A stretch of 60,494 nucleotides of DNA from a virus. Lineage: Duplodnaviria > Caudoviricetes. The DNA lies in the IMG/VR virus record IMGVR_UViG_3300032331_000843, positions 1 to 60,494 of that record; one strand, 5' to 3'. Under the pieces are notes generated by a model. That model had not been told where the DNA came from. It searched no databases and was given only the letters and a program-made list of their open reading frames with translations. Positions 15,252-60,494 of this stretch are shown piece by piece; the first letter of the stretch is position 1, and each line of letters begins with the position of its first letter. A program made the position numbers and the translations under genes.

Positions 15252-15468
15252 CTTAAACGCTAACCAGAAAACAACACGCACGTACATTTATGAGCTAAGT
15301 AAGGATAAAAAGATAACCTCCATGGGACTTCATAAATGGCGCCTATGCTCTCACATATCAGTAGAGTCACTGAATATCCCGCCAGAAGTAGTCAATCCTA
15401 GAAAGCCATGGGAGTTTGCTCAAGAAGCAATCATGAATATGATGAGGACGCACAGTGTACCGCAATGA
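15178..15468 (+). CDS. Winged-HTH protein
   Basis: ILHYIALNPGKTTKEIANNLN..TRTYIYEL. Confidence 0.65.
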   Translation: MNKKIRILHYIALNPGKTTKEIANNLNANQKTTRTYIYELSKDKKITSMGLHKWRLCSHISVESLNIPPEVVNPRKPWEFAQEAIMNMMRTHSVPQ

Positions 15469-15742
15469 GAAACTTCTAAAGATTCTCAGACAGTCACCAT
15501 GCCAGCACTGCGGTTGCCAAGACGGAACCGTGGTCGCTGCTCACAGCAATCAACTCAGAGACGGCAAAGGCAGAGGCATCAAAGCACATGACTTCCGCAC
15601 GGCAAGTTTATGCTACGGTTGCCACATGGAGCTGGATCAGGGAAAGAACCTATCTAAGGCTGAGCGGGAAGAGTTATGGGAAAACGCCCATCGGAAAACA
15701 ATAGGATGGCTGTTTGAGAACGGCCACCTTACTGTTTCTTAG
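15455..15742 (+). CDS. DUF1364/DUF968-like Zn-binding nuclease-like protein
   Basis: PCQHCG..VVAAHSN..GKGRGIKAHD..LCYGCH. Confidence 0.75.
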   Translation: MYRNEKLLKILRQSPCQHCGCQDGTVVAAHSNQLRDGKGRGIKAHDFRTASLCYGCHMELDQGKNLSKAEREELWENAHRKTIGWLFENGHLTVS

Positions 15743-18700
15743 ACGCTTTCCTTACTTCTTCAACCATCCTAGAAGTTTCAGATATTAGGATTCTAGTTCT
15801 AGCAATCTCAAGCTCTTTCTCTTCCTTGCTCATGCTAGGATCTCTAGTAATCATCTGAATGTATTTACGGTACTCAGCCAAGCTCTTAGATGTCTTGTCG
15901 TACATCTTCTGCAAGGTAATCAAGTCGCCCTTCTTCTCGTAAATCTCAGCCACTTTCTCCAAGTCACCAATCTCGGTGTAACGCTTCATGTCAGCGAACG
16001 CCTGGTTGATTTTCTTGTTGTTGTCATAGAAAGCTGTAGCAAACTTAGATTGAGTCTCTGGCATAGTCTTGATAAAGCCCATACCAACCGTGTCAATCAA
16101 CGGTTTACCTGGCTTCTCTACCTCACTCCAAGGCTGAACGGCTTTGTCAGAAACAGATGCTGCCGTGCCTCCAAGCCAACCAAGATAAGCTTTGACAGCG
16201 TAGTCAACCTGAACTGGAGACATGCCTTCTGCTTCAGGACTCATTGTAAGAACCCTAGTCGCTGCTTGGCTAATACCGCCCAACGCCTTAGCTAGTGCGC
16301 TTGTGCTGTCAGTGTAGCGCTCTTGCTTAGATAAACGCTCAAGACCAGCTGACTCAATCGGCGCGCCAGTAAAGCTGTCCTTATTTGCATACAAGTCAAT
16401 CAATGGCTTGGCAAACTGTGGGATTGGGTTCAATGAGAATGTATCTGAAAGGATAGAGTGCATACGGTTTGCAAACACTTTACCTTCAACGTTCTCATCC
16501 ATAACCTGTTCAATCGTGCGCTCTGCAATCGTACCCAAAGCACCAATCTCAAACGGCTTAGGAATACGGTACTGAACGTCATTAATCTTGAACCACCAGA
16601 AGTTATCTCTGTCCCAGTCCTCACGGCGCTGGAAGTCTTCATCATCCTTGAATGTCAAGTAGAGGAGCGTAGATGCCAACATAACAGCACTAGACACAAC
16701 CATGAAACTCTGCGCCTTAATCTTGTCAGATGCCTCAATAGGCTTGCCAGTTGCTGTGTTGTAGATAAGTCTATACGTTGGAGTAATACCGTCTCTACCG
16801 AGCTTATACAAGCCCTGTAAACGTGCGTTGAAGAACGGAACCACCTGGGAAAGAACCTTAACCGCACGGAATGAACCCTGTGATGAGAAGTTCATTAAGT
16901 CTCGAGCTGCAAAAGACGCTTCCAAATGAGTCTTGCCTTCGTCAATTAGCTTCTGGTAAAGGGTTAAACGGTTAGCATTTTCAAAGCGATTACCCTGTTC
17001 GTTGTACCAATCCAAGGCTTTACCAAACATACCTTTGATTTTCTCAGGCGTATCAAGGATTGTGCCGTAGTTAACGCCCTTGTCTATCAAGCGCTTAATC
17101 ATCTTGGCTTGGTCGCCTTCGTGTGCAACACCCATCTCAAATACGCCACCACCTACCAAAGCTGACATGAATGTAGGATTACCACGGTCAGACAACTTAA
17201 GACCGTTGTAGACGTTAGTCATGATGTTCATACCAATTGGGCTAACAGCCGCCGCCTGTACAGAGTCACGCATTAAGTTGCGAATCTTATAGGCTGGAGA
17301 CAAAGTAACACCATAACGCAATGCGTTAGTAAACCCTTTGGCTACATCCAAGAACGGTGACTTAGGGCCTAGGTAGCTGATAAGGGAGATGGAGTCCACT
17401 AGATCTGGGTCAGTTACAGAATAGGCAACCTCATTGCCCTTCTCCATAATCTTAACAACGTCCTTCTTATCCACAAATCTACGCTCGCCATCTTCGGTAA
17501 CGTAGTACTGGGTAACACCCTTAACGGTAGTCTGTTTAACCTTCTCGGCTGCACCTAAATCAGCGGCTGCCTTCAATGTACTTTGAGCGGCGGCGTTCTT
17601 CATAGACGCAGACAAGATATGTGACCAGTTCATTAGAACGTTTTCCATCAAGTCGTTGGTCTTCTTCTCTCCACCCTTAAGCTTCTTAGAGAAGTATTGA
17701 CCAGTTAACTTAGAGGACGCATTCACTGAACCAACTTGCCCGTCTTCCATCTCTGAGTAGAACGGGATGTAGTAAATGTCACTAGCAAAGCGGGCGTATG
17801 CCTCATCGTCAATGATGCCTTGAGCTTTAGCAATATCAAGAACAGACCTGTTTAGCGCGTTCTCTTCCTTAAGAGCTGTCTCGTAAACCTGCTTACGTGG
17901 CACGCCATTAATCTCACCTTTGACCAATTCATCCCTGTAACCAATTAAGTCTTGGAATGAACGCTTATCTGCTGGCATTCGAGCATCACGGTTCAAAGCT
18001 TTCCAGATCTGGTACTGGTCTACTTCCTTACCCAATGGCTCAAGGATATCCAATAGACCTTTGGTTCCCTTTTTGATATTCAAGGCGCCGTTATCTAGCT
18101 CAACTTGACCGTAATACAACAATCCCTCAAGTGCACCGTCTGTAGACTTAGATAGCACGGACTTCATGTAGGCTTCGTTGGAATACTTCTTGATAGAGCG
18201 GAACTCGTCAAACAATCCCTGAATCAAACGCTCCGCCATGTTAGGACGCAACTGTTTAAACTTTTCCTGAATCGTTGCAGGAGTTTGTGTGAACTGAGCA
18301 ATAATTCTCTTGGCAACATCTGGGTTAACGTTACTTAAGTCAGCCTTCAACCTCTTAGGCGTAGGGATTTCTGCTTTTGGTTGTTTTGTTTCTTTAACAG
18401 ATTTATTACCAAGCCTAGAAATAGCTGTCTTTAACTGAGGTGACAAGTCAAATGAAGTTGGCTCCTGAATAATTGCTAAAACAGCCTGATGTGGGTAGTC
18501 AAACCCAAGCATCCCGTCTTTCTTTAGCTGGCGTAAGATGTACTGCTCTTCTTTAGTAGCCTGTTCATAAGCAGATTCAAAAGCTTCGTCTGGAGAAAAT
18601 GATTCATCATACGAACCCTGCATTCTTTTGTACATTGAAGTTAGAGTAGTTTCACGACCAAACTGATTTGGTTCATCTCGTTCGCTCCAAGCAGGAATTT

Positions 18701-21700
18701 CAGCACGGATATCAGCATCAGCTTGACTGAAATCACCAACGTTTCCAGTTGAAGACTTAATGTTGCCTGGGTTAAATACCTGAAGAGATTCAATTCTATT
18801 GCCATCCAAATCGTAGTCATAATGGAAAATAGAATCAAACCCTTGTTTCTTAAGGTCGTTGATGACCGCATCAGAAACGTTCTTGTCTGTGTATGAAGAT
18901 GTATACAAATAACTGTCTTCAGCATTCTGGTCGTACAAACCAAGCTTCTTGGCTGTATTAAGTACATCATCAGCTGAGGCAATGTTTTCCGCTTTGATGT
19001 AAACAGGCAGGATGTTTGCACCCTTAATGCCTTCAGACTCACCATCAAATCGTGCGCCTTGCTCGTATTCTTCTTTCAAAGCGTAAGAATTAGCGGCCTT
19101 TGGAGAGAACGTAAAGAACTGGTTAGGAGAGAACTTGGTAATGTCAGTTGCCGTTCCGTGATACATAACACGTGGCGCACCGTTTTTATCAACGACTTTA
19201 GAATTACCAAACCACTTTGCAAAACTATCAGCTCGATCTGCACGAATGTCATTATCTTGAATATTGAATTCACCAATATTTCCAGTAGCAGACTTAAGTT
19301 GGTTAGGCTCAAACGCAACCGCTTCCCAAATTGTTCCGTCTGGGTTCTTAATAACAATACCGTCATAACCTTCTTGCTTGGCTTGTTCAGTAATGTATTT
19401 AGAATGTTGTGGGCTATGACGAACCATACCAGTAGGCAAAACTTCTTTCTCGCCACCTTGATATATCTTAGGGTTAATCATGCGAACATATAAAGGAAGA
19501 ATGTTTCCACCTTTTGGTGGCGTCTTATCAAAGCCACCCCAATAAAGCTTAGTTCTGTCAGGCATTCCTGTTAAATAAACGCCATACCCAAAAGCACCAG
19601 CACCAGGCTTGAACTCATTAAAATCCTTGCGTGTGCCATGATATAAAACCATAGGCGTGCCATCAGGATTAACAATCTTACTGTCACCAAACCATGCGTC
19701 AAAAGCTTCTTTTCTATCCGCTGCATTAAGAGGTTCTTTTGTCTTCTGCTTGGCGGGCGCTTTAACTTCAACAGGTTCAGTTTGTTTTAACTTGCCTTCC
19801 GCTGCTTCAGCAAAGATGTCGTCAGCAATACGGAAACCTCTTCCACGCAACACGTTACCAATACGCTTAAGCATATCCAAAGCTTTAGCAATGATTGATT
19901 TAACTACTGGTGGCTGTGTCTGTCTATCAGCAAAAGCATCAGCAATTGCTTCTTCAATGCGTTCTTCTTGGCTTAAATTAGGATAACGCTGTTTAACGTT
20001 GTATTTCTGCAACCACTGTTTAGTTGCCATGTCAGACAACATCTTCCAGTCAGCATCAGAGAAGAATCCTAACTCCCTCATTGCGTGAATTGATTCGTGA
20101 TTCAACGTGCGTAATATGTTGTCGCCTGACAATGACACCTGGATAAGCTTGTCAAAGTAGTTACCGTTAACCTCAGTCATTCGTCCGTTGATTAACTGAT
20201 AGATAGAATCTTCTAGGTTTAGACCTACACCCTTTAGCCCCATCTTATCTAATGATGCACGCATATTCTTAGCCAGCGTCTCGCCTTCAGCTATGAACTT
20301 GTCTGTGTAATAACCTTGCGGTTGACGCATCTCAGCTTTAGGCTCAGGAAGAACGCCTTGCTCTACAGCTTGCTTGTACTCCATCTCAAGCGGTGCTGTT
20401 TCAGCGGAAATTTCCTGTGCTACAGGGGCGCCTTCAGGAACGAACTGTTCTTGCGGAACAGCTTGTGCTTGCGCCAGTATGTCCGCCTCTAGTTCAGCGC
20501 CTTCTAGGGGTGCTAAATCAGCTTCTGTAGGGGTTGGTTCAGGCTTAATCAAGGCACGTCTTTGACGGAACGCTTCCTCTAGCTGGTCAACTTGGGCATA
20601 AGCATCCTGCATCTTTGGAGTAACAACCACTTCTCCACGGAACGCATCCTGAATCATTTCAGTTAACTTGCGTACACCACCAACATCACCAGCCGCATCA
20701 ATGTCAGCCTGTGTCATGAAACCAGAATCTCTAGCACGAGTAGCTAACTCATCTAACTGCTGGCCATCAGGACGGAAAAGCTTACGCTTGTCGTTATTGG
20801 TGCTGATAACCTTGTTTTTGTTCTTCTTAGACTCGCCAAGAACGTCCATCATTTGGTCAGCTTTGACGCCTTGCTTGGTTAACCAGTTAGCAAACTCGTT
20901 AGTACCAAAGTCAATCGTCTTCATGGCATTGTCGTACTCCAACTGAATGATGTCTTCTTCAGTTGGGTCAACCATCACCTTATCCATCTTACGGAAAGAT
21001 TTCTTACCGCTATCATCGTAATACTTAAGCCACTCTGAGCCGTCTTTACGAGTAACTTTTTCGCCCTCAGTAACCTTTACAGATGAGTCACCTTCAGGAA
21101 CAAAGCCGAATCGAGTAATCTTTTCGCTAGAAACCTCTGGGATTTCTGGCATAGGATTGAACTTGCTCAATACTTCATTGATGCCTTCAGTGCCTAGCTG
21201 TGGAGCATACTTGGCGGCAAATGCGGCCTCATCTGATGTAGCAACAGACCCATCAGGGAATACAAAGTATGGCTTGATTGTTGGCTTATATGGCAATAAA
21301 CCAGCGATAACCTGTTCTTTAGGGGGAACAATGTTACCTTGCTCATCAAACTCAGCTGTAGAAAACGCAGACCCCTCAGCCTTACGCAAGTCTTCTTCAG
21401 CTTGTTTTGCCCTAGCTTGTTGGTTTAATTCATCTAGCTTTTGGTATGCCTTAGAGTTCTTTCTAGCCTGTAAATCACGGAACGCCTCAACACGAAGACG
21501 GTCAGCTTCATCCGCATAAGCCTCTCGTGTACCAAGTAATCCAGTATCTATTTCTTCTTCAGGAATTCTATTCTGTTCTTCTTGTAAGCGGGCAAGTTCT
21601 GCTTCACGGCGCGCTCTTGCACCCAAGGCAACACCAGCTGGGGCGCCAAATAAAGCACCGCCTAATGCACCCATAGAACTAGCCGCGCCAACACCCTTCA

Positions 21701-22604
21701 GCAACTCAGTCTCAGGGAATACTTCTTGAATACCAATGTTGCTGGCAAACTTTCCACCACCCTCTTCAAGACCCTCACTGACCGCCTCACCAATAGTACT
21801 CTTAAGGAATCCGCCAGTACCAGGCAACCCTTTACCAAGCATCGCTCTTTCAATAGACGCACCGCCTGGTAACTTAGAAGAAGCCAAACTTAAACCAGCC
21901 GCCTCAAGAGCAGCAACACGACCTTTAGCTAAAGCAATGCCCTGAGCTTCCTCTTCAGGCGTGCCTTCTTCTTTTAACCGTGAATAAATCTGTAAGTAAG
22001 TGTCATAACCTATATCTGTGCCTTGCATAACAGCACCACCAGCAAGGGCAGAGCCAACGCCAACTTTAGATACAGCCTCTTCAGTAGCATTCTTTAGTAG
22101 TAACTTAGCACCACCCTTACCCAAGGCGCCAAAACCAAACGACCCAATTAGGTTAGGTATTTGTTCAGAAAAGAAAGATGATAATAACGCTGGATCAGTA
22201 GCTAATCCCTTTAGTTGAACTCCAGCTTCTTCAAAGAAACCGTCCGCCTTAGCTACATCTCTAGCCAATAACTTTTCTTTAGCTACTAATGTAGGCGTCT
22301 TTAGTCCTTGAGCATACTTCTCAAGTTCTTGACCGTAACCTTGAATGCCAGAGTCTTGACGTTCAGGTGAAGACATACCAGCAAGCGTACCAAGTTGACC
22401 TGGTAACTGTATAAGATTACCAACACCCGCTAAAAGACTGGCACCAATGTCTTTAGTACCACCTAATAAGCCACGGGGAGCTTTAGCTTGAATCTCTGGA
22501 AACTGAGGAAGTATTTCTGTTTCAATGGCCGTCTGAATTTGTTCATTAGACATCTCATCTGGGAAGCTGACTTGGCCAACCCCCTGAATATTTACAATCG
22601 GCAT
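15729..22604 (-). CDS. Large polyvalent ejection protein: zincin metallopeptidase, two ADP-ribosyltransferase-like domains, LPD38-like C-terminus
   Basis: HESIH..EEAIADAF; two WFGxSKxVxxxGxPxVxYHGT..KSxTGN domains; VPFFNARLQG..RIPKPFEIG. Confidence 0.85.
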   Translation of the reverse strand: MPIVNIQGVGQVSFPDEMSNEQIQTAIETEILPQFPEIQAKAPRGLLGGTKDIGASLLAGVGNLIQLPGQLGTLAGMSSPERQDSGIQGYGQELEKYAQGLKTPTLVAKEKLLARDVAKADGFFEEAGVQLKGLATDPALLSSFFSEQIPNLIGSFGFGALGKGGAKLLLKNATEEAVSKVGVGSALAGGAVMQGTDIGYDTYLQIYSRLKEEGTPEEEAQGIALAKGRVAALEAAGLSLASSKLPGGASIERAMLGKGLPGTGGFLKSTIGEAVSEGLEEGGGKFASNIGIQEVFPETELLKGVGAASSMGALGGALFGAPAGVALGARARREAELARLQEEQNRIPEEEIDTGLLGTREAYADEADRLRVEAFRDLQARKNSKAYQKLDELNQQARAKQAEEDLRKAEGSAFSTAEFDEQGNIVPPKEQVIAGLLPYKPTIKPYFVFPDGSVATSDEAAFAAKYAPQLGTEGINEVLSKFNPMPEIPEVSSEKITRFGFVPEGDSSVKVTEGEKVTRKDGSEWLKYYDDSGKKSFRKMDKVMVDPTEEDIIQLEYDNAMKTIDFGTNEFANWLTKQGVKADQMMDVLGESKKNKNKVISTNNDKRKLFRPDGQQLDELATRARDSGFMTQADIDAAGDVGGVRKLTEMIQDAFRGEVVVTPKMQDAYAQVDQLEEAFRQRRALIKPEPTPTEADLAPLEGAELEADILAQAQAVPQEQFVPEGAPVAQEISAETAPLEMEYKQAVEQGVLPEPKAEMRQPQGYYTDKFIAEGETLAKNMRASLDKMGLKGVGLNLEDSIYQLINGRMTEVNGNYFDKLIQVSLSGDNILRTLNHESIHAMRELGFFSDADWKMLSDMATKQWLQKYNVKQRYPNLSQEERIEEAIADAFADRQTQPPVVKSIIAKALDMLKRIGNVLRGRGFRIADDIFAEAAEGKLKQTEPVEVKAPAKQKTKEPLNAADRKEAFDAWFGDSKIVNPDGTPMVLYHGTRKDFNEFKPGAGAFGYGVYLTGMPDRTKLYWGGFDKTPPKGGNILPLYVRMINPKIYQGGEKEVLPTGMVRHSPQHSKYITEQAKQEGYDGIVIKNPDGTIWEAVAFEPNQLKSATGNIGEFNIQDNDIRADRADSFAKWFGNSKVVDKNGAPRVMYHGTATDITKFSPNQFFTFSPKAANSYALKEEYEQGARFDGESEGIKGANILPVYIKAENIASADDVLNTAKKLGLYDQNAEDSYLYTSSYTDKNVSDAVINDLKKQGFDSIFHYDYDLDGNRIESLQVFNPGNIKSSTGNVGDFSQADADIRAEIPAWSERDEPNQFGRETTLTSMYKRMQGSYDESFSPDEAFESAYEQATKEEQYILRQLKKDGMLGFDYPHQAVLAIIQEPTSFDLSPQLKTAISRLGNKSVKETKQPKAEIPTPKRLKADLSNVNPDVAKRIIAQFTQTPATIQEKFKQLRPNMAERLIQGLFDEFRSIKKYSNEAYMKSVLSKSTDGALEGLLYYGQVELDNGALNIKKGTKGLLDILEPLGKEVDQYQIWKALNRDARMPADKRSFQDLIGYRDELVKGEINGVPRKQVYETALKEENALNRSVLDIAKAQGIIDDEAYARFASDIYYIPFYSEMEDGQVGSVNASSKLTGQYFSKKLKGGEKKTNDLMENVLMNWSHILSASMKNAAAQSTLKAAADLGAAEKVKQTTVKGVTQYYVTEDGERRFVDKKDVVKIMEKGNEVAYSVTDPDLVDSISLISYLGPKSPFLDVAKGFTNALRYGVTLSPAYKIRNLMRDSVQAAAVSPIGMNIMTNVYNGLKLSDRGNPTFMSALVGGGVFEMGVAHEGDQAKMIKRLIDKGVNYGTILDTPEKIKGMFGKALDWYNEQGNRFENANRLTLYQKLIDEGKTHLEASFAARDLMNFSSQGSFRAVKVLSQVVPFFNARLQGLYKLGRDGITPTYRLIYNTATGKPIEASDKIKAQSFMVVSSAVMLASTLLYLTFKDDEDFQRREDWDRDNFWWFKINDVQYRIPKPFEIGALGTIAERTIEQVMDENVEGKVFANRMHSILSDTFSLNPIPQFAKPLIDLYANKDSFTGAPIESAGLERLSKQERYTDSTSALAKALGGISQAATRVLTMSPEAEGMSPVQVDYAVKAYLGWLGGTAASVSDKAVQPWSEVEKPGKPLIDTVGMGFIKTMPETQSKFATAFYDNNKKINQAFADMKRYTEIGDLEKVAEIYEKKGDLITLQKMYDKTSKSLAEYRKYIQMITRDPSMSKEEKELEIARTRILISETSRMVEEVRKASKKQ

Positions 22605-51692: not shown

Positions 51693-51876
51693 CGTCAGAG
51701 TTCTCCATTTTTTGTTTAAGGTCTAATATGTATCCCCTAGCGGTCAGCAGACCCTTAATCTCACCGCAGGTTGCTTTATAAGCCTCGAACGTATCGGCAC
51801 GCCCGCTTCCTATAAATTCTTGTAACTGCTTAATTTTGTTGTCCACTTCGTTTATTAGGACTTCAAAAGCTGTCAT
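51685..51876 (-). CDS. Hypothetical protein after the portal
   Basis: YKATCGEIKGL. Confidence 0.7.
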   Translation of the reverse strand: MTAFEVLINEVDNKIKQLQEFIGSGRADTFEAYKATCGEIKGLLTARGYILDLKQKMENSDDE

Positions 51877-54359
51877 TGTTTATTACCTTTCTTCGTAGCG
51901 TTAATGGCGGTTTTAATGCCATCAGCCTCTTGTTGGTCTCTATGCTTTTTCATATCCAGCTGTAGCTTGGCTTTTGATTTAGCAATTTCTGACCCTACTT
52001 TTGCGCCTTCAGCTTCTAGTTTTTCGCCTTCTAGTTGCTTTTTAACCATCAACGCTTGAGTGGCTTGGCGTTCTTGAGCGGCAATTCTCTCCCTCTCAAT
52101 TTGTTGCTGAGAAGCTTTAAGTTGAGCATCCGTCTGATCCTTAACTTGTTTACGTTGTACGTCAGCTTCCTTAATTGCAAGTTCTTTCTGCTGCATCTGG
52201 ATAATCGGATCCTGTTGCTGCTCTTGAGCTTGCTGTTGTGCGGCCTGTGCTTTATTGGCCTCTAATACCTGTTGAGAAGCTTGCGCTACTAAACGAGATA
52301 TCTGTACTTCGTACTCTTCTGGCATCTCTTCATTTGGCTTAGGCAATGGAGCGCCCATTTGCTGTTCAACCATGAGACGATACTTAAAGCCAAAGTGTTC
52401 AGCAATATGCGCGTGCATCGCTGCTGTAATCTGGCTTGCATTTGGATTCTGACCAATAATGGCCGCTGTTTGTGGGTCTTGCAAGAATGTTTGATGCGCC
52501 GTAATGTGGGCATCTTGATCCTGATACAGGAACGCCTTGACTGGCTGGCTATTCAATATATCCATATTCTCAGAAATAGGATCTTTTGGTTTCTGGTCTT
52601 CTTTAAGAGCCACCAACTTAGCCGCGTTCTTAACACCTAAAACATCTAACATCTGGCGGTGCAGTTGAGCCATGTCGTATAGCTGTGGTGCGCTTTGTGC
52701 CAATTGCAATACGGCCTGATACTGAACAATCTTCTGAGCCATCGTTGCTGCATTTGGGTCAGAGACTGGGATAACTGAAACCAAGTCATAGTCAGACTGC
52801 TTAGCAAAACGGTCACCTTCTACTGGTTCGTAGTTGTATTCTTCTGGCGTGTAATCACGGATGATTTCTTTAAGAAGTTTTAACTCTTGCTTCATTGAAT
52901 AGTGGACGCGCGCTTGAACAGCAGACATCACCTTCAACGTTCTTTCCAAGATAGCCAATGTTGTACCGACAGGAGCTTGTGAACTCATGTCGCTAATCTT
53001 CATGTCGGCAGCAGATGCAAAGCGACGACCTTCTTCAACAATAGTACCTAGCAAGCTGTACAAAACTTGGCTTGGTTCTTTATATGGAAGAGTCATTACG
53101 TTATCTTTGATAACGCCACTTGGTACGTCTACGTCACGGAACTCTCCTGGAGAAATAGGAGTGTCATCACCTTTGATTCTTAAGCCACGGGCTTTAAAGC
53201 CACCTGGCAAGTTAGACAATGTGCCAGCGTCAACAAGCTGACGAATGATAGAGGTACCAGACTTAGCAAAAGCGCCAACTAAATGAATCAAACCAAAACA
53301 GTAGAAACCGAATCCAGGTACGTATCCATAATGTACAAAGTGGTTACGCTTCTGTTTTGTTTCGTCTTCTGGGCGCCAGTTGCGGCGGATTGAAAGAATG
53401 GTTTGTGTACCCTTTTCAACCGTAACAACATAAGGTAATGCAATGCCATCTTCTTCTTCATAGCCTGGCAAATCTAAGTCAACGTGCATTTCCAATAACT
53501 TATAACGGTCATCAGATGTAGCGCTGAAGCCCATCTTTTCTGCAATCTTCTTCTCCACATCATCCAAAGAACCATCTGGAGTTGCAAGGTCAACATCTCT
53601 ATAGAAACCTGAAGCCTGTAAGCGTCTAACTTCATTCTCAGTCTTGCGCATGATATGAGTCACGCGTGGTGAAGACTCTAGGTTTGATGCGCCGTAAGGA
53701 ACAACCAAGTCTTCAGCTGGAATAAACACAGATACCTGACGATTTAGACCTGGGTCAAAATATACCTTCTTAAAGGCGTTACCAGATAAACCAAGTCCCC
53801 AGCACATACGCTCATGTTCAGGGCGATACTCAACCATCACATCAGTAATCTGATAGTTCATGTCATCTTGGACTCGAGCAGCCGCTTCTTTTTTCTCTTG
53901 AGTTTCTTTACCAATAATCTGCGTTTTTACTGGGCCAGATGCTGGTAACGTTTCCATCACAGTCTCGGCTTGGAACTTTACTAGAGCCTCTGATAGTAGT
54001 GGGTGGTAAACACCGCAAGCGCCTTCCCATGGTTCAGTGCGCTCTTCAATCTTCATACCTAACAACTCTAAGCCGTCAACGTATGTTTGAATCCAGTCTT
54101 TACGTGAGCTAACGTCTTCCTCAAACTCCCCAAGTAAATCCCCAGCTAACTCTGCCAATTCACCTTCAGACATATATTCAGCTAAGTTTGCTGAAAATTC
54201 TTCTTCGCTTTCTTCTTCTTTGCCAATCTCAATTTCAAGTCCATCAATGCCAATGCTGACTGATTCAGGATCCTCAATTTCAATTTCGATTTCTGGAACA
54301 TCTTCCACTAAATCCTCTATGCCTTGAGGGGCTTGATATAAACTTTTTTCGATAGCCAT
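51873..54359 (-). CDS. Portal protein (P22-like, with barrel)
   Basis: 828 aa after terL; GNAFKKVY; Q-rich coiled-coil tail. Confidence 0.88.
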   Translation of the reverse strand: MAIEKSLYQAPQGIEDLVEDVPEIEIEIEDPESVSIGIDGLEIEIGKEEESEEEFSANLAEYMSEGELAELAGDLLGEFEEDVSSRKDWIQTYVDGLELLGMKIEERTEPWEGACGVYHPLLSEALVKFQAETVMETLPASGPVKTQIIGKETQEKKEAAARVQDDMNYQITDVMVEYRPEHERMCWGLGLSGNAFKKVYFDPGLNRQVSVFIPAEDLVVPYGASNLESSPRVTHIMRKTENEVRRLQASGFYRDVDLATPDGSLDDVEKKIAEKMGFSATSDDRYKLLEMHVDLDLPGYEEEDGIALPYVVTVEKGTQTILSIRRNWRPEDETKQKRNHFVHYGYVPGFGFYCFGLIHLVGAFAKSGTSIIRQLVDAGTLSNLPGGFKARGLRIKGDDTPISPGEFRDVDVPSGVIKDNVMTLPYKEPSQVLYSLLGTIVEEGRRFASAADMKISDMSSQAPVGTTLAILERTLKVMSAVQARVHYSMKQELKLLKEIIRDYTPEEYNYEPVEGDRFAKQSDYDLVSVIPVSDPNAATMAQKIVQYQAVLQLAQSAPQLYDMAQLHRQMLDVLGVKNAAKLVALKEDQKPKDPISENMDILNSQPVKAFLYQDQDAHITAHQTFLQDPQTAAIIGQNPNASQITAAMHAHIAEHFGFKYRLMVEQQMGAPLPKPNEEMPEEYEVQISRLVAQASQQVLEANKAQAAQQQAQEQQQDPIIQMQQKELAIKEADVQRKQVKDQTDAQLKASQQQIERERIAAQERQATQALMVKKQLEGEKLEAEGAKVGSEIAKSKAKLQLDMKKHRDQQEADGIKTAINATKKGNKQ

Positions 54360-54367: not shown

Positions 54368-55861
54368 TTAATAGTATGCAGCTTTGCGTCTGAATGAGAC
54401 TATCTCATCCTTTTCGTCAGATTCTAACTTGATAAATCCACCTTTGCGGAACCTAATAAGCGCTTGCGTTGATGAGTCAACTAAGTCATCGTGATCAGAA
54501 TTTGGAAAAGCAGCCATTTCCTCTATCACTTCCTCAGCCCATCTTGTTCGCGGCGCCCACACTTTCCCCGAAGCGAATAAATCCGATACAGCGTTAATAC
54601 GAGCTATCTTATCATTGCCCCTTGTCGGTGTAAACTCTTGAACAGGTATTCCCATGTTTCTTAATTCAAATATAAGTGGCGCACCCGACGCCTTCGCTTC
54701 AACAATGAACGCATCTGGTTCATATTCCATGTAATGTTTATAGGCAACATCCTTTAACTCTGGAAATTCCATGCGTCTTTTAAAGGCGTCTAGCAAAATA
54801 ACGTTGGCATCATCAGGATTCTCATTTAAATAGAACACGCCCCATGTCGTACACGCAGAATAGTCCGACCTTTCGTTCTTAGTGAACGCCGTATCCCATG
54901 ATTGAATGACAAACTCGCATCTCGGCGGCTCCTCACCCTCCCACTCCTTCCACCACTCCCTCTTAACAATCGCCCCAGACTCAGAAGTAGGCTGTTGCAT
55001 GTACTGCGCGTTCCATTTACCGCTAGGAAGTTCGTTTCTTAGAGCCTCAAGTTCAACCAAAGGCCAGAATTCAGGCCAAAGCGGGTTTCCAGACGGCAAA
55101 ATTGCAGGAAAGTCGATAACTTCCCACTCTTCCCCGTCCCTTTCAACCACTCCTTGCAAAATCCTACCCGTTAAATCACGCTTTCCCCACCGCGTCATCA
55201 CCACAATGATAGAACCGCCTGGTTGCAAACGCTGACGTGGACCAGATGAGTACCATTCAAACACTTTATCGTACACAGACGGGTCAGTCGCAGCCAACGC
55301 CGCCTCTTGTTCTGAGTGCGGGTCATCAATAATCAGCAAATCCGCACCTTTACCAGTAACAGTACCGCCCACACCAATAGCAAAATACTCTCCACCCTCA
55401 TTAGTAGCCCATCGTCCCGCCGCCTTTGAGTCATGTCTTAGCGCCACATTAGGGAATATCTCCGCATACTGCTCACTGTCCAATAAGTTACGTACTTTCC
55501 TACCAAAACCTACAGCCAATTCAGCCGTATTCGAACACTGGATAATCTTTTTCTTGGGGAACTTTCCTAAAAACCAAGCTGGCAACATGTAACTCGCAAA
55601 CTCACTCTTCGTATGTCGCGGCGGCATATTAATAATCAGTCTCTTAATCTCTCCCTTTGCAACCCTCTCAAAAGCTTTTGCCATCACCTTATGATGTCGT
55701 CCATCAATAAACCCGGGCCACATAGCATGCGCAAACTTAATAAAATCTACTTGAGCTTTCTCTCTCTTTAAGGCGTGCTGGTACGCAGTCAACTCCTCCA
55801 TCAGAGATTCCTGCTCATGAACAGGTAACTGCTCAATAAACTCAATCAGCTTATCTGTCAT
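54368..55861 (-). CDS. terL: Terminase large subunit
   Basis: MPPRHTKS Walker A; LIIDD; SWDTA; HDDLVDS. Confidence 0.95.
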   Translation of the reverse strand: MTDKLIEFIEQLPVHEQESLMEELTAYQHALKREKAQVDFIKFAHAMWPGFIDGRHHKVMAKAFERVAKGEIKRLIINMPPRHTKSEFASYMLPAWFLGKFPKKKIIQCSNTAELAVGFGRKVRNLLDSEQYAEIFPNVALRHDSKAAGRWATNEGGEYFAIGVGGTVTGKGADLLIIDDPHSEQEAALAATDPSVYDKVFEWYSSGPRQRLQPGGSIIVVMTRWGKRDLTGRILQGVVERDGEEWEVIDFPAILPSGNPLWPEFWPLVELEALRNELPSGKWNAQYMQQPTSESGAIVKREWWKEWEGEEPPRCEFVIQSWDTAFTKNERSDYSACTTWGVFYLNENPDDANVILLDAFKRRMEFPELKDVAYKHYMEYEPDAFIVEAKASGAPLIFELRNMGIPVQEFTPTRGNDKIARINAVSDLFASGKVWAPRTRWAEEVIEEMAAFPNSDHDDLVDSSTQALIRFRKGGFIKLESDEKDEIVSFRRKAAYY

Positions 55862-55918: not shown

Positions 55919-56143
55919 TCATTCTAAATTCCTAAACTTAATATATATAGGACGTACCGACCTCGCCCGATCAGGCAACCTCTTGCAAACTCCTAATTCA
56001 CATAACCTCTTCACTATCCTATGTACATTCCCCCTACCCCTGTCCCCAGTCATATACATAATATCGTCGATGGACGGCCCAAACCCATACCTAATCCACC
56101 ACTCATCAATAACTAAAAATATCTCTTTTTGCTTAGGCGTCAT
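55919..56143 (-). CDS. LexA-like DNA-binding domain protein (start 56143)
   Basis: MTPKQKEIF..GFGPSIDDI..VHRIVKRL..ARSVR. Confidence 0.75.
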   Translation of the reverse strand: MTPKQKEIFLVIDEWWIRYGFGPSIDDIMYMTGDRGRGNVHRIVKRLCELGVCKRLPDRARSVRPIYIKFRNLE

Positions 56144-56205
56144 CAGTCTTTCCAAACACTGGTCTTTAGAAGCGAATTTCTCAAAAAATATACCCCCCAC
56201 CCCTT

Positions 56206-57114
56206 TCATTTCCAATTACCTACCGGGGGGTCTTCCCCATCATCCAAACCCTTTTCCTTCCAGAAATCATCACTGGGGTACCCCTCTTCAGCTGGTAACG
56301 TTACCACCTCGTTTTTTTCCTCAGTAAAATCAACATCTTGCGAATCCGTATCCTTACACGGAACTGACTGAGTGGATTTAGAGTCGGATTGTTTGTGTGG
56401 AATACTATGTATAGCACTCCCCCCTACGGACGGGTCAATATCGGGGCCTACCCCCACGGTGGGGCCGCCAGGTTCGTGATCACTCGAGCCCGAAAACTCC
56501 TCGGAATTGTGCGGTGCGGTTAGTTCCTTGAGTAAGCTCTCGGCACTTCCCTCAGTGTTTACTTCTTTGCTCTCTACATCTATCACGGCTTTTAATTGAT
56601 TAAGCAAGCGGGCTTTTAATTCTCCGCTCTGATGTATGACAGTGGTTTCCTTCCGCTCCATGAAGACATCCACGCCCGCAACCTTCCCCAAAAGCTCCAA
56701 CGATTTGATGCGTTGGGCGGGATTGATATCCCCATCCAAGGCGTGTTGGGTAAGCTGATGGATTACAAGCCTCCTCAAGTCTGCGGGATTACGATAATCC
56801 TCCGCCTCTTTGGCTAGTCTATACGCCTCTATTTCCACTTGGATTCGGGTATCCTGTGCAAGACGACTAGCATTGTTGCCTACTGTCTTGGTGTTCCCCT
56901 CTGTGTTGTATGCCTCTCTATATGCATCTGCTTTAGTTTTACCGAGTGCAACATGGCGGGCGAATTGCTTTTGCTTGTGGGTGAGTTCCTTAGATTTGCC
57001 TACTCCGAGAAGAATCGTGTCCATTGGAATGCTATCTAATCCCTCTCTTATTTGCTTCCTAGATAAGCGAGGCAACTTCGGAAGATTAGCGGGCTTTTTG
57101 GTTTTCTCTGTCAT
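56206..57114 (-). CDS. terS: Terminase small subunit
   Basis: LTHKQKQFA..ADAYREAY..ASRL; KSLELLGK. Confidence 0.85.
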   Translation of the reverse strand: MTEKTKKPANLPKLPRLSRKQIREGLDSIPMDTILLGVGKSKELTHKQKQFARHVALGKTKADAYREAYNTEGNTKTVGNNASRLAQDTRIQVEIEAYRLAKEAEDYRNPADLRRLVIHQLTQHALDGDINPAQRIKSLELLGKVAGVDVFMERKETTVIHQSGELKARLLNQLKAVIDVESKEVNTEGSAESLLKELTAPHNSEEFSGSSDHEPGGPTVGVGPDIDPSVGGSAIHSIPHKQSDSKSTQSVPCKDTDSQDVDFTEEKNEVVTLPAEEGYPSDDFWKEKGLDDGEDPPVGNWK

Positions 57115-57396
57115 ATCTTTTATATGGGTATAAAACGGGAATATCTGAACAATACCAAAGAATCAACCGAACGCCAAAAATTGATTCTCATCACCTGGCG
57201 AGCTAACAAGTGGAAACGTTACCACCTAAACGAGTGTTTTACCCTCTGTTATCCCTCTACTGGATTAGTAAAAAGGCCACAGAATAAGCGGGCTTTTTTC
57301 ATCAACAATAACCCTCCAGATCAGTCAAGTATTTATATAATCTACAACTACAGAGCCTTATAAACAAAGGGATTGAATGAAATGTAAAATAAATAC

Positions 57397-57426
57397 TTGC
57401 ACAATTTAAAACTATTTGACTATAAT
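57397..57426 (+). promoter_or_regulatory. Early sigma70 promoter
   Basis: TTGCAC-N18-TATAAT with A/T-rich upstream sequence. Confidence 0.75.
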
Positions 57427-57454
57427 TAAAAGGCAACAACTAAACGGAGGATTT

Positions 57455-57679
57455 ATGCAACATTTACACAACTCAACGATTGAAGAATTGCACGAGCTAA
57501 CACGAGAGCAACTCATCACAATGTTAGTAAACCACGACCGAGACGGAGAGTATTCGGACGAGCAACGCACCGCATTGGGTGAGGACATTTTGAACCATCA
57601 AGAGGCTTTGAGCCTTGCAGTTTTCCACTTGAACGAAGTAATAGAGGGCGAAATTTTAAAAAACTTGGGAGGCAAATAA
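57455..57679 (+). CDS. Early hypothetical protein
   Basis: AACGGAGG RBS; TREQLI..DRDGEYSDE. Confidence 0.7.
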   Translation: MQHLHNSTIEELHELTREQLITMLVNHDRDGEYSDEQRTALGEDILNHQEALSLAVFHLNEVIEGEILKNLGGK

Positions 57680-58053
57680 TGGACGATTTAAAGATTAAAG
57701 AACGCAACATTAGGGAGGCTTTAGGGTCTTCCAAATTCGCAGTTGTTCACCCAACCAAAGGCGAGATATTTTTTAGCGGTTATCGCTTTGAGTGCAACGC
57801 TTTCATTTTGGGCTACAACATGAGCAAGAAGGAACAAGAGCAAAAGCAAGCTGAGCGGGATTTATGGACAAACTACGGCAAGCGTTTTGAAGTGATGGAG
57901 AAGGACAATCTCTTTTATGTTTACGACCACGCAACCCAAGTAATCTTGGAGGGCGAGTTATTCGCTAACGAGTTGGAGGCTCACGACTTGATGGAAGACT
58001 TCATTAAAGAAGAAAAAGAGCAAGAACAATACTTCAACCAATCAGGAAGATAA
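57679..58053 (+). CDS. Early hypothetical protein
   Basis: GGAGG RBS. Confidence 0.7.
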   Translation: MDDLKIKERNIREALGSSKFAVVHPTKGEIFFSGYRFECNAFILGYNMSKKEQEQKQAERDLWTNYGKRFEVMEKDNLFYVYDHATQVILEGELFANELEAHDLMEDFIKEEKEQEQYFNQSGR

Positions 58054-58057
58054 CCCC

Positions 58058-58219
58058 ATGAACACGAGAGCATTTTTAATCAACACTTACCTAGACTGGC
58101 GAAATAACTATTTAACCGTTGCCACATTTGCCGACCACAAAGAAATCACAGAAGAGCAAGCGAAGGCATTGATTGAACTCGCCCGCAATACTTTTAACAG
58201 TAACAACCCCCACCAATAA
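58058..58219 (+). CDS. 53-aa early protein (absent from the ORF track)
   Basis: YLDWRNNYLTVATFADH motif. Confidence 0.7.
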   Translation: MNTRAFLINTYLDWRNNYLTVATFADHKEITEEQAKALIELARNTFNSNNPHQ

Positions 58220-58232
58220 GGAAGAAAACAAA

Positions 58233-58559
58233 ATGAAAACGACCGTATATCTAAACGAATTCAGAGACTACTTCAACCAAGTCCGCCCTAATAACTTTTC
58301 TTATGAGGGCCTAGGCATTCTTTTTGAATACTTGGAGCAATACGAGGAAGACACGGGCGAAGAGTTGGAGCTTGATGTAATCGCCCTATGTTGCGATTTC
58401 AGTGAAGAGGACTTTACAGATATCGCCAAGAATTACGACATTGAGCTAGACGAAGAAGCGGACGAAGAAGACCAAATGCAAACCGTGGCGGACTATCTGA
58501 CAGACGAGGGAGCTTATATCGGTCAGACTGGAACGAGCATTATTTACCGTGTATTTTAA
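58233..58559 (+). CDS. Very acidic early protein (DNA-mimic candidate)
   Basis: NFSYEGLGILFEYLEQYEEDTGEELELDVIALCCDFSE; roughly a quarter D/E. Confidence 0.75.
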   Translation: MKTTVYLNEFRDYFNQVRPNNFSYEGLGILFEYLEQYEEDTGEELELDVIALCCDFSEEDFTDIAKNYDIELDEEADEEDQMQTVADYLTDEGAYIGQTGTSIIYRVF

Positions 58560-58571
58560 GGAGCTTAGACA

Positions 58572-58874
58572 ATGACTAATTACATGCACGAATTCCCCCG
58601 CTTTGATGACACCCTCCCAACCTTGGAGGGTTTTAATGATGCATCTTGGCACAATGACGCTTGCCCATCACTTGGCAAAGAGTTACCGAATGGCGATTTT
58701 ATTTGTATTTTTGTGGACTACAAGGACAAAGAACTAAGCGATTTTGCCGACCTTGAGGGCGAACGATACGCCCGCTTCAGAGTTGGCAATCATAAGGAGA
58801 ACGGAGAATATGAGGTTTTATTTCAGTCCAACGACTGGGCGGAGATTGAGGCATTTATTAAAAATTTATTTTAG
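58572..58874 (+). CDS. Early hypothetical protein
   Basis: DASWHNDACPS motif; AAGGAG RBS. Confidence 0.75.
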   Translation: MTNYMHEFPRFDDTLPTLEGFNDASWHNDACPSLGKELPNGDFICIFVDYKDKELSDFADLEGERYARFRVGNHKENGEYEVLFQSNDWAEIEAFIKNLF

Positions 58875-58923
58875 TCCGTCTGATGAGTTCTAAAGAGAAC
58901 GAAAACCCGCAAGGGTTCACGGA
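58875..58923 (+). ncRNA. Type I hammerhead ribozyme
   Basis: UCCGU CUGAUGA GUUCU-AAAG-AGAAC GAAA ACCC-GCAA-GGGU UC/ACGGA: complete core and three stems. Confidence 0.92.
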
Positions 58924-58944
58924 ATACAACCAACGGAGGAAATT

Positions 58945-59214
58945 ATGGAATACCCAATCGTTTTAACTGGTGATAGTCGCTCAATTTATGCGTGCGAATG
59001 GAATGGCGATATATACGAGATTCACACCCTTGAAAGCTTGCAGAAGGAATATGGCGAGACGAATCTTTTTGATACTGAACCTTCTTGGTTCTGCCCAAAT
59101 GCCCGAATCAATTTGACCTTTTTGGAAGTGATTGCAGAGCTAGAGGCGGGCGAGTATGACCGTATCACCAACGACAATATGACCATCACGATATTGAAAA
59201 GAGGTGAATTATGA
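58945..59214 (+). CDS. Early hypothetical protein
   Basis: AACGGAGG RBS. Confidence 0.7.
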   Translation: MEYPIVLTGDSRSIYACEWNGDIYEIHTLESLQKEYGETNLFDTEPSWFCPNARINLTFLEVIAELEAGEYDRITNDNMTITILKRGEL

Positions 59215-59399
59215 TTTTCCAATTTACTTTAAAACACGACCACGGCACGACAAAAGTCACACTCTACGGACACAACTCGGAGGAATCTGCCATCCAGTCA
59301 ATTATGAATCACGAGCGTTGCCCAAGGCGGGCGATTCTCAAAGTTGAAGACTTGACACCGACACCACGAACAACCGCAGAACAAACCCGCATCAGTTAA
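59211..59399 (+). CDS. Early hypothetical protein
   Basis: FTLKHDHG..ERCPRRAI. Confidence 0.7.
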   Translation: MIFQFTLKHDHGTTKVTLYGHNSEESAIQSIMNHERCPRRAILKVEDLTPTPRTTAEQTRIS

Positions 59400-59418
59400 A
59401 ACCTGAGCGGGTTTTTTA
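59383..59418 (+). terminator. Intrinsic terminator
   Basis: AAACCCGC..GCGGGTTTTTT. Confidence 0.75.
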
Positions 59419-59539
59419 TTGCCATCCCGCAAGGGAGGAGAGGACTTTTTGACACATTTTTTTAGGGCCGCCAGATCAGTTGGGCTCGAGTTCCGCTTTC
59501 CCGGGAGCTTGCCTGGAAGAGCTTTTGGAAAATTTCAGA

Positions 59540-59577
59540 CTAAAAGGGTCATGCTTGCCCTAAAAGGGTCATGCTTA
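59540..59577 (+). repeat. CTAAAAGGGTCATGCTT x2 (20-bp period); further copy at 1785-1800
   Basis: Exact matches read from the sequence. Confidence 0.85.
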
Positions 59578-59581
59578 TTTA

Positions 59582-59623
59582 TTTTACAATTGCTATTGTT
59601 TTTACAATTGTTATCGCTATAAT
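59582..59623 (+). promoter_or_regulatory. Second early promoter overlapped by TTTTACAATTGYTAT x2
   Basis: TATAAT 59618-59623; direct repeats across the -35 region. Confidence 0.6.
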
Positions 59624-59646
59624 GTAATTTACATACAGGAGGATAT

Positions 59647-59760
59647 ATGCGTTATGTATGCGGAGGCAGACTGTTTGACACGCTTGAGGAGGCGAAACAG
59701 TATGCTGATTTTATTCACAGAGTAAGTCGTTTAATTATAAGTATCACGGAGGAAGTATGA
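59647..59760 (+). CDS. 37-aa early protein
   Basis: FDTLEEAKQYA; AGGAGG RBS. Confidence 0.6.
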   Translation: MRYVCGGRLFDTLEEAKQYADFIHRVSRLIISITEEV

Positions 59761-59978
59761 AATTCAACTTAGTTATATATGTGCCTGATGAGGCTATTGA
59801 GCAAGCATCAAAAGAGTTTGAGATGCCTACTGATGAACTAATCAGCAAGATTGGTAACACTTGTTATTTAGGTCTTGATTGTATTAACGCCATGCTTGGT
59901 CGCCAGTATGAATTAGAGGCGGGCGACTGGTATGTCTCTTCCATTATGGGAGATGACGACACTGTTCACGCAGATTAA
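59757..59978 (+). CDS. Early hypothetical protein
   Basis: ACGGAGG RBS. Confidence 0.65.
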   Translation: MKFNLVIYVPDEAIEQASKEFEMPTDELISKIGNTCYLGLDCINAMLGRQYELEAGDWYVSSIMGDDDTVHAD

Positions 59979-59988
59979 CGGAGGAAAT

Positions 59989-60159
59989 ATGAATTACACA
60001 GAAAAAACTTGGGGTGAGTTATATGGTGACACTTACCCAACCGATAAAGAATTACCGATTGAGGTAATTGAACACCACGCACAAGCTCATGGCTTAATCG
60101 CAAGTGATGATTTGCTTATGTTTGCTCGTGCATTATGGACGGAGGGGAAATTGTCATGA
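59989..60159 (+). CDS. Early hypothetical protein
   Basis: TAACGGAGG RBS. Confidence 0.65.
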   Translation: MNYTEKTWGELYGDTYPTDKELPIEVIEHHAQAHGLIASDDLLMFARALWTEGKLS

Positions 60160-60413
60160 AAATATATCTAGCACAAGGCGAAAGCCGTAGTTTTGAATTC
60201 TCTGCCATTGGTTTGACTGAGGCAGAGGCAGAACACGCCATCATTGAAACATTCAAGGCCCATGCTCGGCACTATGCCCTACCCCTAGACTGGTGGAAGG
60301 AAAACGCAGACTTTTTCATTATGGAAATGGAGACGGGTCATTACTACCGAGACCGCTCTTTAATTAACCCGAAGTGGTATCACTCAGACGATCTGGAGGA
60401 ATCAAATGCCTAA
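60156..60413 (+). CDS. Early hypothetical protein
   Basis: ESRSFEFSAIG..EAEA; ACGGAGGG upstream. Confidence 0.65.
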   Translation: MKIYLAQGESRSFEFSAIGLTEAEAEHAIIETFKAHARHYALPLDWWKENADFFIMEMETGHYYRDRSLINPKWYHSDDLEESNA

Positions 60414-60494
60414 ATTTACTATTGAAATTCATGAGACACAAAACTGGACTTATTCCTATGATGTAGAGGCGAAGAGCAGTGAGGAGGCTCATCA

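Follow-up and report, generated by a model that had tools for sequence, protein, structure and literature searches.

The window analysed here is the whole stretch of DNA of IMG/VR record IMGVR_UViG_3300032331_000843 (Duplodnaviria; Caudoviricetes), a whole-genome record consisting of one contig of 60,494 bases. In a segment of 5580 bp, which comprises the 5' two-thirds of terS, the gene of the small terminase subunit, and the small early genes on the other side of a divergent promoter region, several 4-bp palindromic restriction targets are absent or nearly so; we consider it somewhat more probable than not (a probability of about 0.55) that this desert is due to selected avoidance of such targets, confined to the DNA that is first exposed in the host. 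The avoidance is found at the end next to terS and in the small early genes and, in weaker form, in the gene block that follows; what is shown is selection against 4-bp palindromes in a sub-genomic segment. The original prediction, made by reading the sequence alone, had described the desert as bracketed by two natural polylinkers, one within terS (cluster 1) and one between the first and the second early operon (cluster 2); both appear to be by-products, cluster 2 owing its GC-rich palindromes mainly to its composition.

Extent and Specificity of the Desert

According to the original prediction, the stretch from 57330 to 59460 contains no GATC, TCGA, GTAC, ACGT, CCGG, GCGC, CGCG, CCWGG or GCNGC, where several of each would be expected, and the stretch from 56495 to 57190 is similarly clean. 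Both statements are borne out: the largest gap between sites of these nine kinds, of which the window holds 1022 in total, extends from 57319 to 59467 (2148 bp) and the fourth largest from 56484 to 57194 (710 bp), while 2.6–5.6 copies of each 4-mer are expected in 57330–59460 from the region's own trinucleotide content, the basis likewise of the palindrome counts expected in the full desert. One GGCC, a word that was not on the list of absent sites, is found at 58308 within the clean stretch.

The first 123 bases of the contig are identical to its last 123 (1–123 repeats 60372–60494), giving a circular assembly of 60,371 unique bases; since 123 is presumably the largest k-mer of one common assembler setting, the overlap is ascribed to the assembly rather than to a physical repeat. 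With the two contig ends joined, the desert is larger than first described: it starts at 56492, crosses the junction and stops at about 1700, spanning 5580 bp or 9.2% of the genome. Its first part (56492–60494) contains the 5' two-thirds of terS, the divergent promoter region and small plus-strand early genes, and its second part (1–1700) ends with the plus-strand early genes.

Within the 5580 bp, CGCG, GCGC and GTAC do not occur at all (expected 11.9, 13.4 and 11.4, respectively), ACGT and CCGG occur once each (expected 12.1 and 12.6), and TCGA, GATC and GGCC are reduced to 2, 4 and 6 copies (expected 12.9, 14.3 and 15.9); GCNGC is found once versus 6.6 expected, while CCWGG is undepleted (4 versus 3.8). 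The depletion is specific to restriction-type words, and base composition is not its cause. The eight other 4-bp palindromes are present at 0.87–1.42 of expectation and 6-bp palindromes without an avoided core are undepleted as well (44 versus 51.5 expected); when the 136 strand-symmetrised 4-mers are ranked in the desert, palindromes occupy each of the lowest seven places and eight of the lowest nine.

Genome-wide, 0 of 183 GTAC, 0 of 182 GCGC and 1 of 185 ACGT sites fall inside the desert (binomial P 2e-8, 2e-8 and 3e-7, respectively), and in the late genes (9001–56000) the same three words reach 0.94, 1.09 and 0.78 of expectation, with GCNGC at 0.99. CGCG, too, is lacking specifically in the early region (binomial P 5e-3), and for GATC, GGCC, CCGG and TCGA there is no significant extra rarity there (P 0.13–0.42). 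CCGG, GATC, GGCC and CGCG are rare throughout the genome, at 0.31–0.50 of expectation in 9001–56000 (CCGG 0.31, GATC 0.45, GGCC 0.45), where CCWGG and TCGA are found at 0.61 and 0.71. As to the context of the 79 GATC sites of the window, the next base is G in only 4 of them and the preceding base is T in 36, so that CGATCG- or GATCG-type words are seemingly avoided beyond GATC itself.

The avoidance is graded, being absolute over 5.6 kb, partial over the next 7.5 kb and nil in the remaining 47 kb. The partial desert lies over the minus-strand block (1701–9165), in which GTAC is nearly gone and roughly half the expected numbers of ACGT and GCGC remain (1 versus 22, 14 versus 27 and 10 versus 19, respectively, in 2001–9000). 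Past the contig junction the absolute zone gives out at about 1.8–2.5 kb, where GCGC reappears at 1834, GCNGC at 1853, GTAC at 2113 and ACGT at 2492; the usual density of GTAC resumes at 9166, the start of the plus-strand middle block.

Recurrence in Related Genomes

A scan anchored on terL, the gene of the large terminase subunit, gave 80 loci, of which 30 (25 plus 5 more), with about 4.8 kb or more upstream of terL and at least 1.5 kb from the terL start onward, were used; a word was flagged if its early side had no more than 0.15 of the expected count and its terL side at least 0.5. Two or more palindromes were flagged in 14 of the 30 loci and one or more in 16, and the flags fell on palindromes in 39 of 467 tests versus 2 of 3600 for non-palindromes. 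The flagged sets vary by relative: GTAC and ACGT are usual, AGCT is flagged in 8 loci, GCGC and GGCC in 3 each and GATC in 1, a variation that is expected from changing repertoires of host enzymes. By these comparisons the desert is a family trait whose site set shifts between relatives. The avoidance of restriction sites by first-entering phage DNA, which the original prediction had invoked, is well supported by comparative evidence, namely the palindrome-specificity, the region-specificity and the recurrence in 14 of 30 relatives.

The position of the desert edge was compared in 13 loci, 11 of which carry long deserts (5–9 kb with zero avoided sites). In 10 of these 11 the edge lies in the 3' part of terS or no more than 150 bp past its stop codon, and in the remaining one (L057) about 225 bp earlier, within the conserved terS domain; this domain is inside the desert in the other 10 relatives and in the window, where the edge falls at about codon 208 of terS, just beyond the conserved domain. 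The closest cultured relatives by terL are phage DSL-LC04 (58%) and the pelagiphages HTVC027P and HTVC023P (54–55%); in DSL-LC04 and HTVC027P the layout is different, terS being 4–5 kb from terL, and both were excluded from the edge comparison.

The early region varies strongly and has a mosaic structure, in which close relatives match in patches of 69–97% identity and segments are replaced. A hypervariable patch at 57430–58232 belongs to the first early operon, and the IMG/VR relatives align there only in patches; in the contig of one strain 57431–57442 is replaced by 701 letters and 57575–58231 by 70. The contig ends of the IMG/VR relatives are scattered and cluster at hypervariable DNA, and for this reason they were not used as evidence for genome termini. 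About ten short terL-bearing contigs end 1.9–2.1 kb upstream of terL.

The Site Cluster within terS

Cluster 1 (56461–56491; G+C content 0.71) is the first unpurged DNA at the desert edge and encodes the ..SGSSDHEPGGPT.. of the terS linker, a variable Gly/Pro/Ser segment. All the sites named by the original prediction in both clusters are present where it had read them, those of cluster 1 being GGCC (56463), GCNGC (56464), CCWGG (56468), GATC (56478), CTCGAG (56483) and GDGCHC (56486). The five sites counted in cluster 1 compare with a mean of 2.15 in dinucleotide shuffles (P 0.039), and the number of distinct kinds in the two clusters has a shuffle P of 0.013–0.022; eight 54-bp windows genome-wide, both clusters included, reach the maximum of six sites.

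In the alignment with relatives, CTCGAGCCC is found in 2 of 7 sequences only (the window and L084), and the same holds for CTCGAG and GAGCCC; the other five sequences show another wording, in which CCAGG and GATC are kept and CGCG is gained. Cluster 1 is not conserved in five of the six other aligned sequences (L001, L083 and L085–87). Its GGCC is gone in L001, L083, L084 and L085–87, L084 still having the GCNGC, and in two near-identical strains from other samples (runs X2 and X3) a C>T change at 56466 destroys it. Cluster 1 is read as the first ordinary GC-rich, Gly/Pro-rich coding DNA outside the purged zone.

The Site Cluster between the Early Operons

Cluster 2 (59464–59517), the most GC-rich 54-bp window of the desert (0.65), carries GGCC at 59466, GCNGC at 59467, GATC at 59474, GDGCHC at 59482, CTCGAG at 59485, CCCGGG at 59500, AGCT at 59506 and 59520, and CCWGG at 59512. 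It is located between the terminator of the first operon and a second early promoter-like site, just upstream of two 17-bp repeats. The terminator is a plus-strand hairpin followed by a T-run (59384–59418; stems AACCCGC / GCGGGTT, then TTTTTT), which was read by eye and was not listed by the terminator scan, its loop being above the limit of the scan; an equivalent hairpin is present in relatives. The repeats are two exact direct copies of CTAAAAGGGTCATGCTT on the plus strand, 20 bp apart (59540–59576), which are kept in relatives and probably represent operator sites. The promoter-like site (TTGTTT-16-TATAAT, 59596–59623, plus strand), again read by eye and not listed by the scan, has both hexamers invariant in seven aligned close relatives. 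The same arrangement is also found in five more contigs and in one short metagenome contig.

The close relatives share, without change, TTTTTGACA, GCCAGATCAG, GCCTGG, both 17-bp repeats and the second promoter, while the 30–40 bp between the invariant GCCAGATCAG and GCCTGG occur in three different GC-rich versions. A fourth version is that of L206, the only informative locus added by a metagenome scan with a 73-residue early protein; here the terminator, TTGAC, CCGCTTTCC, CCTGGAAG and the repeats are recognisable. CTCGAG, CCCGGG and GGGCTC are confined to the window and the 97%-identical L082, the three other versions being different, and each version holds 3–5 of ten site kinds. In relatives the position of cluster 2 is kept, and of the site kinds only GATC and CCWGG persist, the 6-bp sites being lineage-specific. 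Such a fast turnover of the core amid well-conserved flanks suggests recent replacement rather than retention. The six sites compare with a shuffle mean of 3.47 (P 0.096), and the P for distinct kinds is 0.013; once their G+C contents of 0.71 and 0.65 are taken into account, the clusters are only weakly above chance.

Folding of the RNA of the four versions on both strands gave no stability signal (z −1.2 to +1.6), Rfam and ARAGORN gave no match at either cluster, DnaA boxes do not form an array (three matches genome-wide, none in cluster 2), and the sigma-54 and sigma-70 promoter forms read from the conserved TTGACA have no acceptable −10 or −12 element. The pattern GCCAGATCAG-gap-GCCTGG proved too unspecific in a scan of the collection: it returned at least 117 stretches, and among the matches listed one relative was recognised (L123, the contig of L083). 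A possible small open reading frame (ORF) on the plus strand (59449–59622), with a TTG start after a GGAGG motif, extends over cluster 2, both 17-bp repeats and the second promoter. In all four versions this frame remains open over 47–79 codons and, as read by eye, its indels relative to L206 are multiples of three, so that a small basic peptide possibly encoded by this frame has to be considered; RFP and PGRA are in frame in the window and in L206, and the other versions have FFR or RFC, and PGRA or PGTA.

Words Shared by the Two Clusters and the C5 Methylase

The two clusters were said to start alike, and indeed GGGCCGCC is found at 56462 and at 59465; it also occurs at 41037, while GCCGCCAG is present in this genome at the two clusters only. 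Among the 80 terL-anchored loci the exact GGGCCGCCAG start is absent save at one unrelated place. In L086 and L087 the places of clusters 1 and 2 share GATCAGTTG instead, and GCCAG and GATC are common to both places in all aligned relatives. A shared binding protein or occasional conversion could account for these common words, which are short and belong to a pair of places chosen post hoc.

It had also been suggested that the clusters list the targets of the phage methylase, a C5 cytosine DNA methylase of 575 residues with a long insert between its conserved blocks (2054–3781, minus strand; PF00145, E 5e-54, in two stretches; phrog_116). The Bacillus phages SPR, phi3T, rho11s and H2 encode multispecific C5 methylases, to which the long insert provides a likeness; the difference is that here the site kinds of the clusters are mostly avoided genome-wide, including in the late genes, so that protection by the phage's own methylase is disfavoured, and with it the suggestion. 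Of the cluster kinds only GCNGC, of which each cluster has one, would fit a protected target (0.99 in the late genes); GCGC, which is not avoided late either, is absent from both clusters. As they are not avoided in the late genes, GCGC and GCNGC appear, by this indirect argument, to be the better candidates for targets of the phage methylase.

A Proposed Mechanism Based on the Order of Entry

In the mechanism that we propose, the genome would enter the cell end-first, slowly or stepwise, by analogy with T5-like and T7-like phages, the terS-proximal end being the first to enter; a fixed physical end of the genome would coincide with, or lie close to, the sharp and conserved edge in the 3' part of terS. 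The first operon would then be expressed from a host-type promoter some 900 bp inside the edge and directed inward, as is the case for the early promoters of T7. The early proteins, and perhaps an injected polyvalent protein too, would disarm the host nucleases before the late DNA arrives, so that only the leading segment would have to be free of sites; the gradient of three zones would follow successive stages of entry.

Several observations weigh against this interpretation. Early-specific avoidance is lacking in 14 of the 30 relatives, often those of higher G+C content. The circular assembly also fits a permuted, headful-packaged genome, and the nearest better-known phages by terL, Aaphi23 and Listeria B054 at 32–35% identity, are presumably headful packagers. 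The early ORFs (20 searched in PHROGs and 12 in Pfam) match no known anti-restriction family; one of them encodes an acidic protein of 108 residues (58233–58559, plus strand) in which two neighbouring cysteines are invariant and which has 2485 relatives at E ≤ 0.001; its family has neither a Pfam entry nor an informative name, and its confident AlphaFold2 model (predicted local distance difference test score 87) has no match in the PDB at E ≤ 0.001. Finally, cluster 2 is an exception that is not fully explained as a by-product of composition: GATC and CCTGG are kept in four of its four versions, it is the one GC-rich patch left unpurged in the desert, which has no CCGG or GCNGC elsewhere, the other GC-rich windows of the desert (G+C 0.57–0.63) contain 0–1 sites, and late windows of like G+C content (18 overlapping windows) have 3.6 sites on average and never six.

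Other Explanations of the Desert

Among the alternatives the one that survives best, though unlikely, retains selection and dispenses with the order of entry: the early region would avoid the targets of the phage's own methylase, exposed as they might be to methyl-dependent (type IV) nucleases, or those of a phage nuclease produced early for the degradation of host DNA. GCGC and GCNGC stand at 1.09 and 0.99 of expectation in the late genes, as if methylated, yet are missing early; the C5 methylase with its long insert adjoins the early genes; and for T5 it has been proposed, in the available text of 10.1101/866236, that A1 is a restriction enzyme. Either version, on the other hand, works only if the late DNA is shielded or not yet exposed at this stage, so that the order of entry, or an early protective function, returns; moreover, none of the early ORFs was identified as a gene for a restriction-type nuclease. 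L019 and L024 are the only relatives in which DNA similarity to the methylase gene, which also bears on this explanation, is seen.

Avoidance confined to first-exposed DNA, which remains our preferred interpretation, can be pushed to a more ambitious form that we regard as unlikely, in which the desert is a footprint of injection order legible from sequence alone: the genome would have a fixed end in terS, about 9% of it would enter first as in T5, cluster 2 and the 17-bp repeats would end a terminal repeat or mark a pause of entry, and the two clusters would be related terminase or stop sites.

More doubtful still is the explanation that clusters 1 and 2 delimit a direct terminal repeat of about 3 kb (56.46–59.52 kb) around the first early operon, comparable to those of T5 or SPO1; the terminase would cut related sequences at both, and cluster 2 with the 17-bp repeats would correspond to the injection stop region of T5. 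In the window the clusters do have a 10-mer and CTCGAG in common (the word GATCAGTTG takes their place in L086 and L087, and GCCAG and GATC are shared in all aligned relatives); cluster 1 coincides with the conserved edge of the desert and cluster 2 directly follows the terminator of the first operon; a 48.6-kb contig of one relative has an end at 6 bp from the place that corresponds to cluster 1; the circular assembly is what a collapsed long repeat would give; and the boundary region of T5 is described as noncoding and rich in repeats and palindromes (10.1101/866236, available text). Nevertheless, the absolute desert runs on unchanged for 2.5 kb past cluster 2, the likeness between the two places is short, dependent on the relative and chosen post hoc, an array of DnaA boxes of the T5 type is missing, searches of PHROGs and Pfam with the early ORFs detected no homologues of known T5 pre-early proteins, and the contig ends elsewhere scatter and track hypervariable DNA.

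It is quite improbable that the desert is instead a historical signature, left by a mobile module (the 5' part of terS and the early genes) that crossed many hosts and avoided the union of their restriction systems, the structural genes having known one host range. The mosaic and hypervariable early region, with its patches of 69–97% identity and its replaced segments, would agree with this, as would the many short contigs that break in the early region and an edge at the boundary of the terS domain, a plausible recombination joint. However, a restriction enzyme selects on the whole incoming molecule, so that a module could presumably not be purged to zero while some 180 sites of the same kind remain in the genome, unless these sites were shielded; in addition, the avoided set varies with each genome and not with a common module.

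Least probable of all is the proposal of the original prediction that the clusters are selected as such, to serve as decoys, programmed break points or a sensor of methylation ahead of the second early promoter, listing the targets of the C5 methylase: the two are among the eight densest 54-bp windows and have GGGCCGCCAG and CTCGAG in common, and the position of cluster 2 is kept in four versions with 3–5 of ten kinds each in a nearly empty region, GATC and CCTGG recurring in all of them and the distinct kinds exceeding the shuffles, but the content is not conserved (the 6-bp sites of cluster 2 are confined to the window and L082, those of cluster 1 to the window and L084, and GGCC of cluster 1 is lost in six of the seven other sequences and strains compared), the site totals are within composition (P 0.04–0.10), the 6–9 kb deserts of more distant relatives hold none of their own avoided sites and hence no such island, kinds mostly avoided genome-wide argue against protection by a phage methylase, and a cut between the early operons would presumably still be lethal to the phage.

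Genome Organization and Further Features

On the minus strand, which carries the structural genes, are the portal gene (51873–54359), terL (54368–55861), a gene for a conserved winged-helix protein of 98 residues (55919–56215; LexA DNA-binding domain, E 4e-5; phrog_3502), which is located between terS and terL, just beyond the desert, and terS itself (56206–57114; 302 residues; phrog_51 over residues 39–175, E 1e-10). A 17-bp element, TGG(T/A)AACGTTACCACCT, built around the palindrome GGTAACGTTACC, is found on either side of terS, at 56293–56309 and 57211–57227, and is probably an operator; its copy at 57211 contains the sole ACGT of the 5.6-kb desert. AAGCGGGCTTTT or TAGCGGGCTTTT is found on the plus strand at 56606–56617, 57087–57098 and 57286–57297, within terS or shortly upstream of it, and a near copy is located at 59406; these words have six matches in the genome at no more than one mismatch, a number reached in 0 of 100 shuffles, and could be terminase-binding (pac-type) boxes or half-terminators.

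The first early promoter-like site (TGCACA-17-TATAAT, 57398–57426, plus strand), a consensus match only (10 of 12), falls in the divergent intergenic region upstream of terS and is directed away from it. It precedes the first early operon (57455–59399, plus strand), which consists of seven small ORFs without known family, including that of the widespread acidic protein of 108 residues; in all, about 20 small plus-strand ORFs extend from 57455 across the contig junction to about 1660. The minus-strand block that follows (2054 to about 9130) encodes the C5 methylase, a helicase, a ParB-like protein and a RusA-like resolvase, and the plus-strand middle block (9133–15742) a PD-(D/E)XK nuclease and an ERF recombinase. 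A polyvalent protein of 2291 residues, with an ART-PolyVal (ADP-ribosyltransferase) domain at residues 981–1113 and LPD38 at 1988–2160, is encoded by the final gene of the structural block (15729–22604, minus strand); polyvalent proteins have been proposed to enter with the phage DNA and to counter host defences.

The DNA is listed in 22 sequencing runs, available as contigs only, which come from freshwater, drinking-water or unspecified metagenomes, except one that is coded as an organism; the contigs of 4 of the 22 were compared to the window and showed strain variants and no starts, ends or depth steps. The early-region DNA had no match among 50,697 phage records, and a DNA search with terL and the portal gene gave two weak matches only. 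A full-length Rfam match to the Betaproteobacteria-1 small RNA in the minus-strand middle block (8057–8182, minus strand; 91 bits, the gathering score being 49) may point to a host among the betaproteobacteria or to an RNA gene acquired from the host.

Relation to Known Systems and Significance

Avoidance of palindromes over whole phage genomes has reportedly been described by Sharp in 1986, Rocha in 2001 and Rusinov in 2018. The present genome resembles such cases in its late genes, where CCGG, GATC, GGCC and CGCG are at 0.31–0.50 of expectation, and differs from them in that GTAC, GCGC, ACGT and GCNGC are avoided in the early part only. A search of the literature on avoidance of restriction sites or palindromes in early or first-entering DNA yielded nothing directly on point, and the HTVC027P transcriptome paper is silent on genome ends and restriction; according to the discussion in the available text of PMC12455610, earlier bioinformatic surveys ignored the location of sites.

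T5-like phages, as described in the available text of PMC10644984 and 10.1101/866236, resist restriction–modification systems of types I, II and III as well as CRISPR systems unless a site is located in the first-step-transfer DNA. What counts for their resistance to restriction is solely that the few percent of the genome entering first are free of sites, while the remainder may hold many; this is matched here by a desert of 9.2% with small genes without known function, followed by a noncoding stretch with direct repeats; the differences are a 60-kb genome with another gene set and a gradient of three zones rather than two. Compared with the injection stop region of T5, which is noncoding and contains ordered repeats, palindromes and DnaA boxes, cluster 2 is accompanied by two 17-bp repeats only, its core is unconserved and the desert continues beyond it.

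T7-like Marinomonas phages escape a type I system if only the leading region lacks the motif, and this region is hypervariable and carries anti-defence genes; the authors predict that such an escape is impossible for headful packagers (PMC12455610, available text). The likeness to T7-like phages (Autographiviridae, with gene 0.3/Ocr) lies in the inward sigma-70-like promoter about 900 bp inside the desert edge; the present genome differs in that no Ocr-like or other known anti-restriction protein was found, and in that eight 4-bp palindromes are purged, whereas the published case concerns one type I motif. A phage RNA polymerase was not found among the proteins scanned, which are a subset of the genes. 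In conjugative plasmids, too, the leading region enters first and is rich in anti-defence genes, but is described, in the available text of PMC13478746, as "not consistently depleted" in palindromes of 4–8 bp, while the depletion is near total here.

That restriction falls mainly on the first-injected segment is known from experiments for T5-like phages and, since 2025, for T7-like ones (PMC12455610). Here it takes the form of a near-absolute footprint, readable from sequence, in an uncultured freshwater family, with a sharp conserved edge and a set of sites that changes with the presumed host. Caution is suggested by the clusters: dense groups of restriction sites beside a desert can be merely unpurged GC-rich DNA. 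If the desert does mark the leading end, it would allow a cheap prediction of genome ends and of the polarity of entry from metagenomic contigs, and it would pinpoint candidates for early anti-defence genes as well as the 4-cutter enzymes of the hosts.

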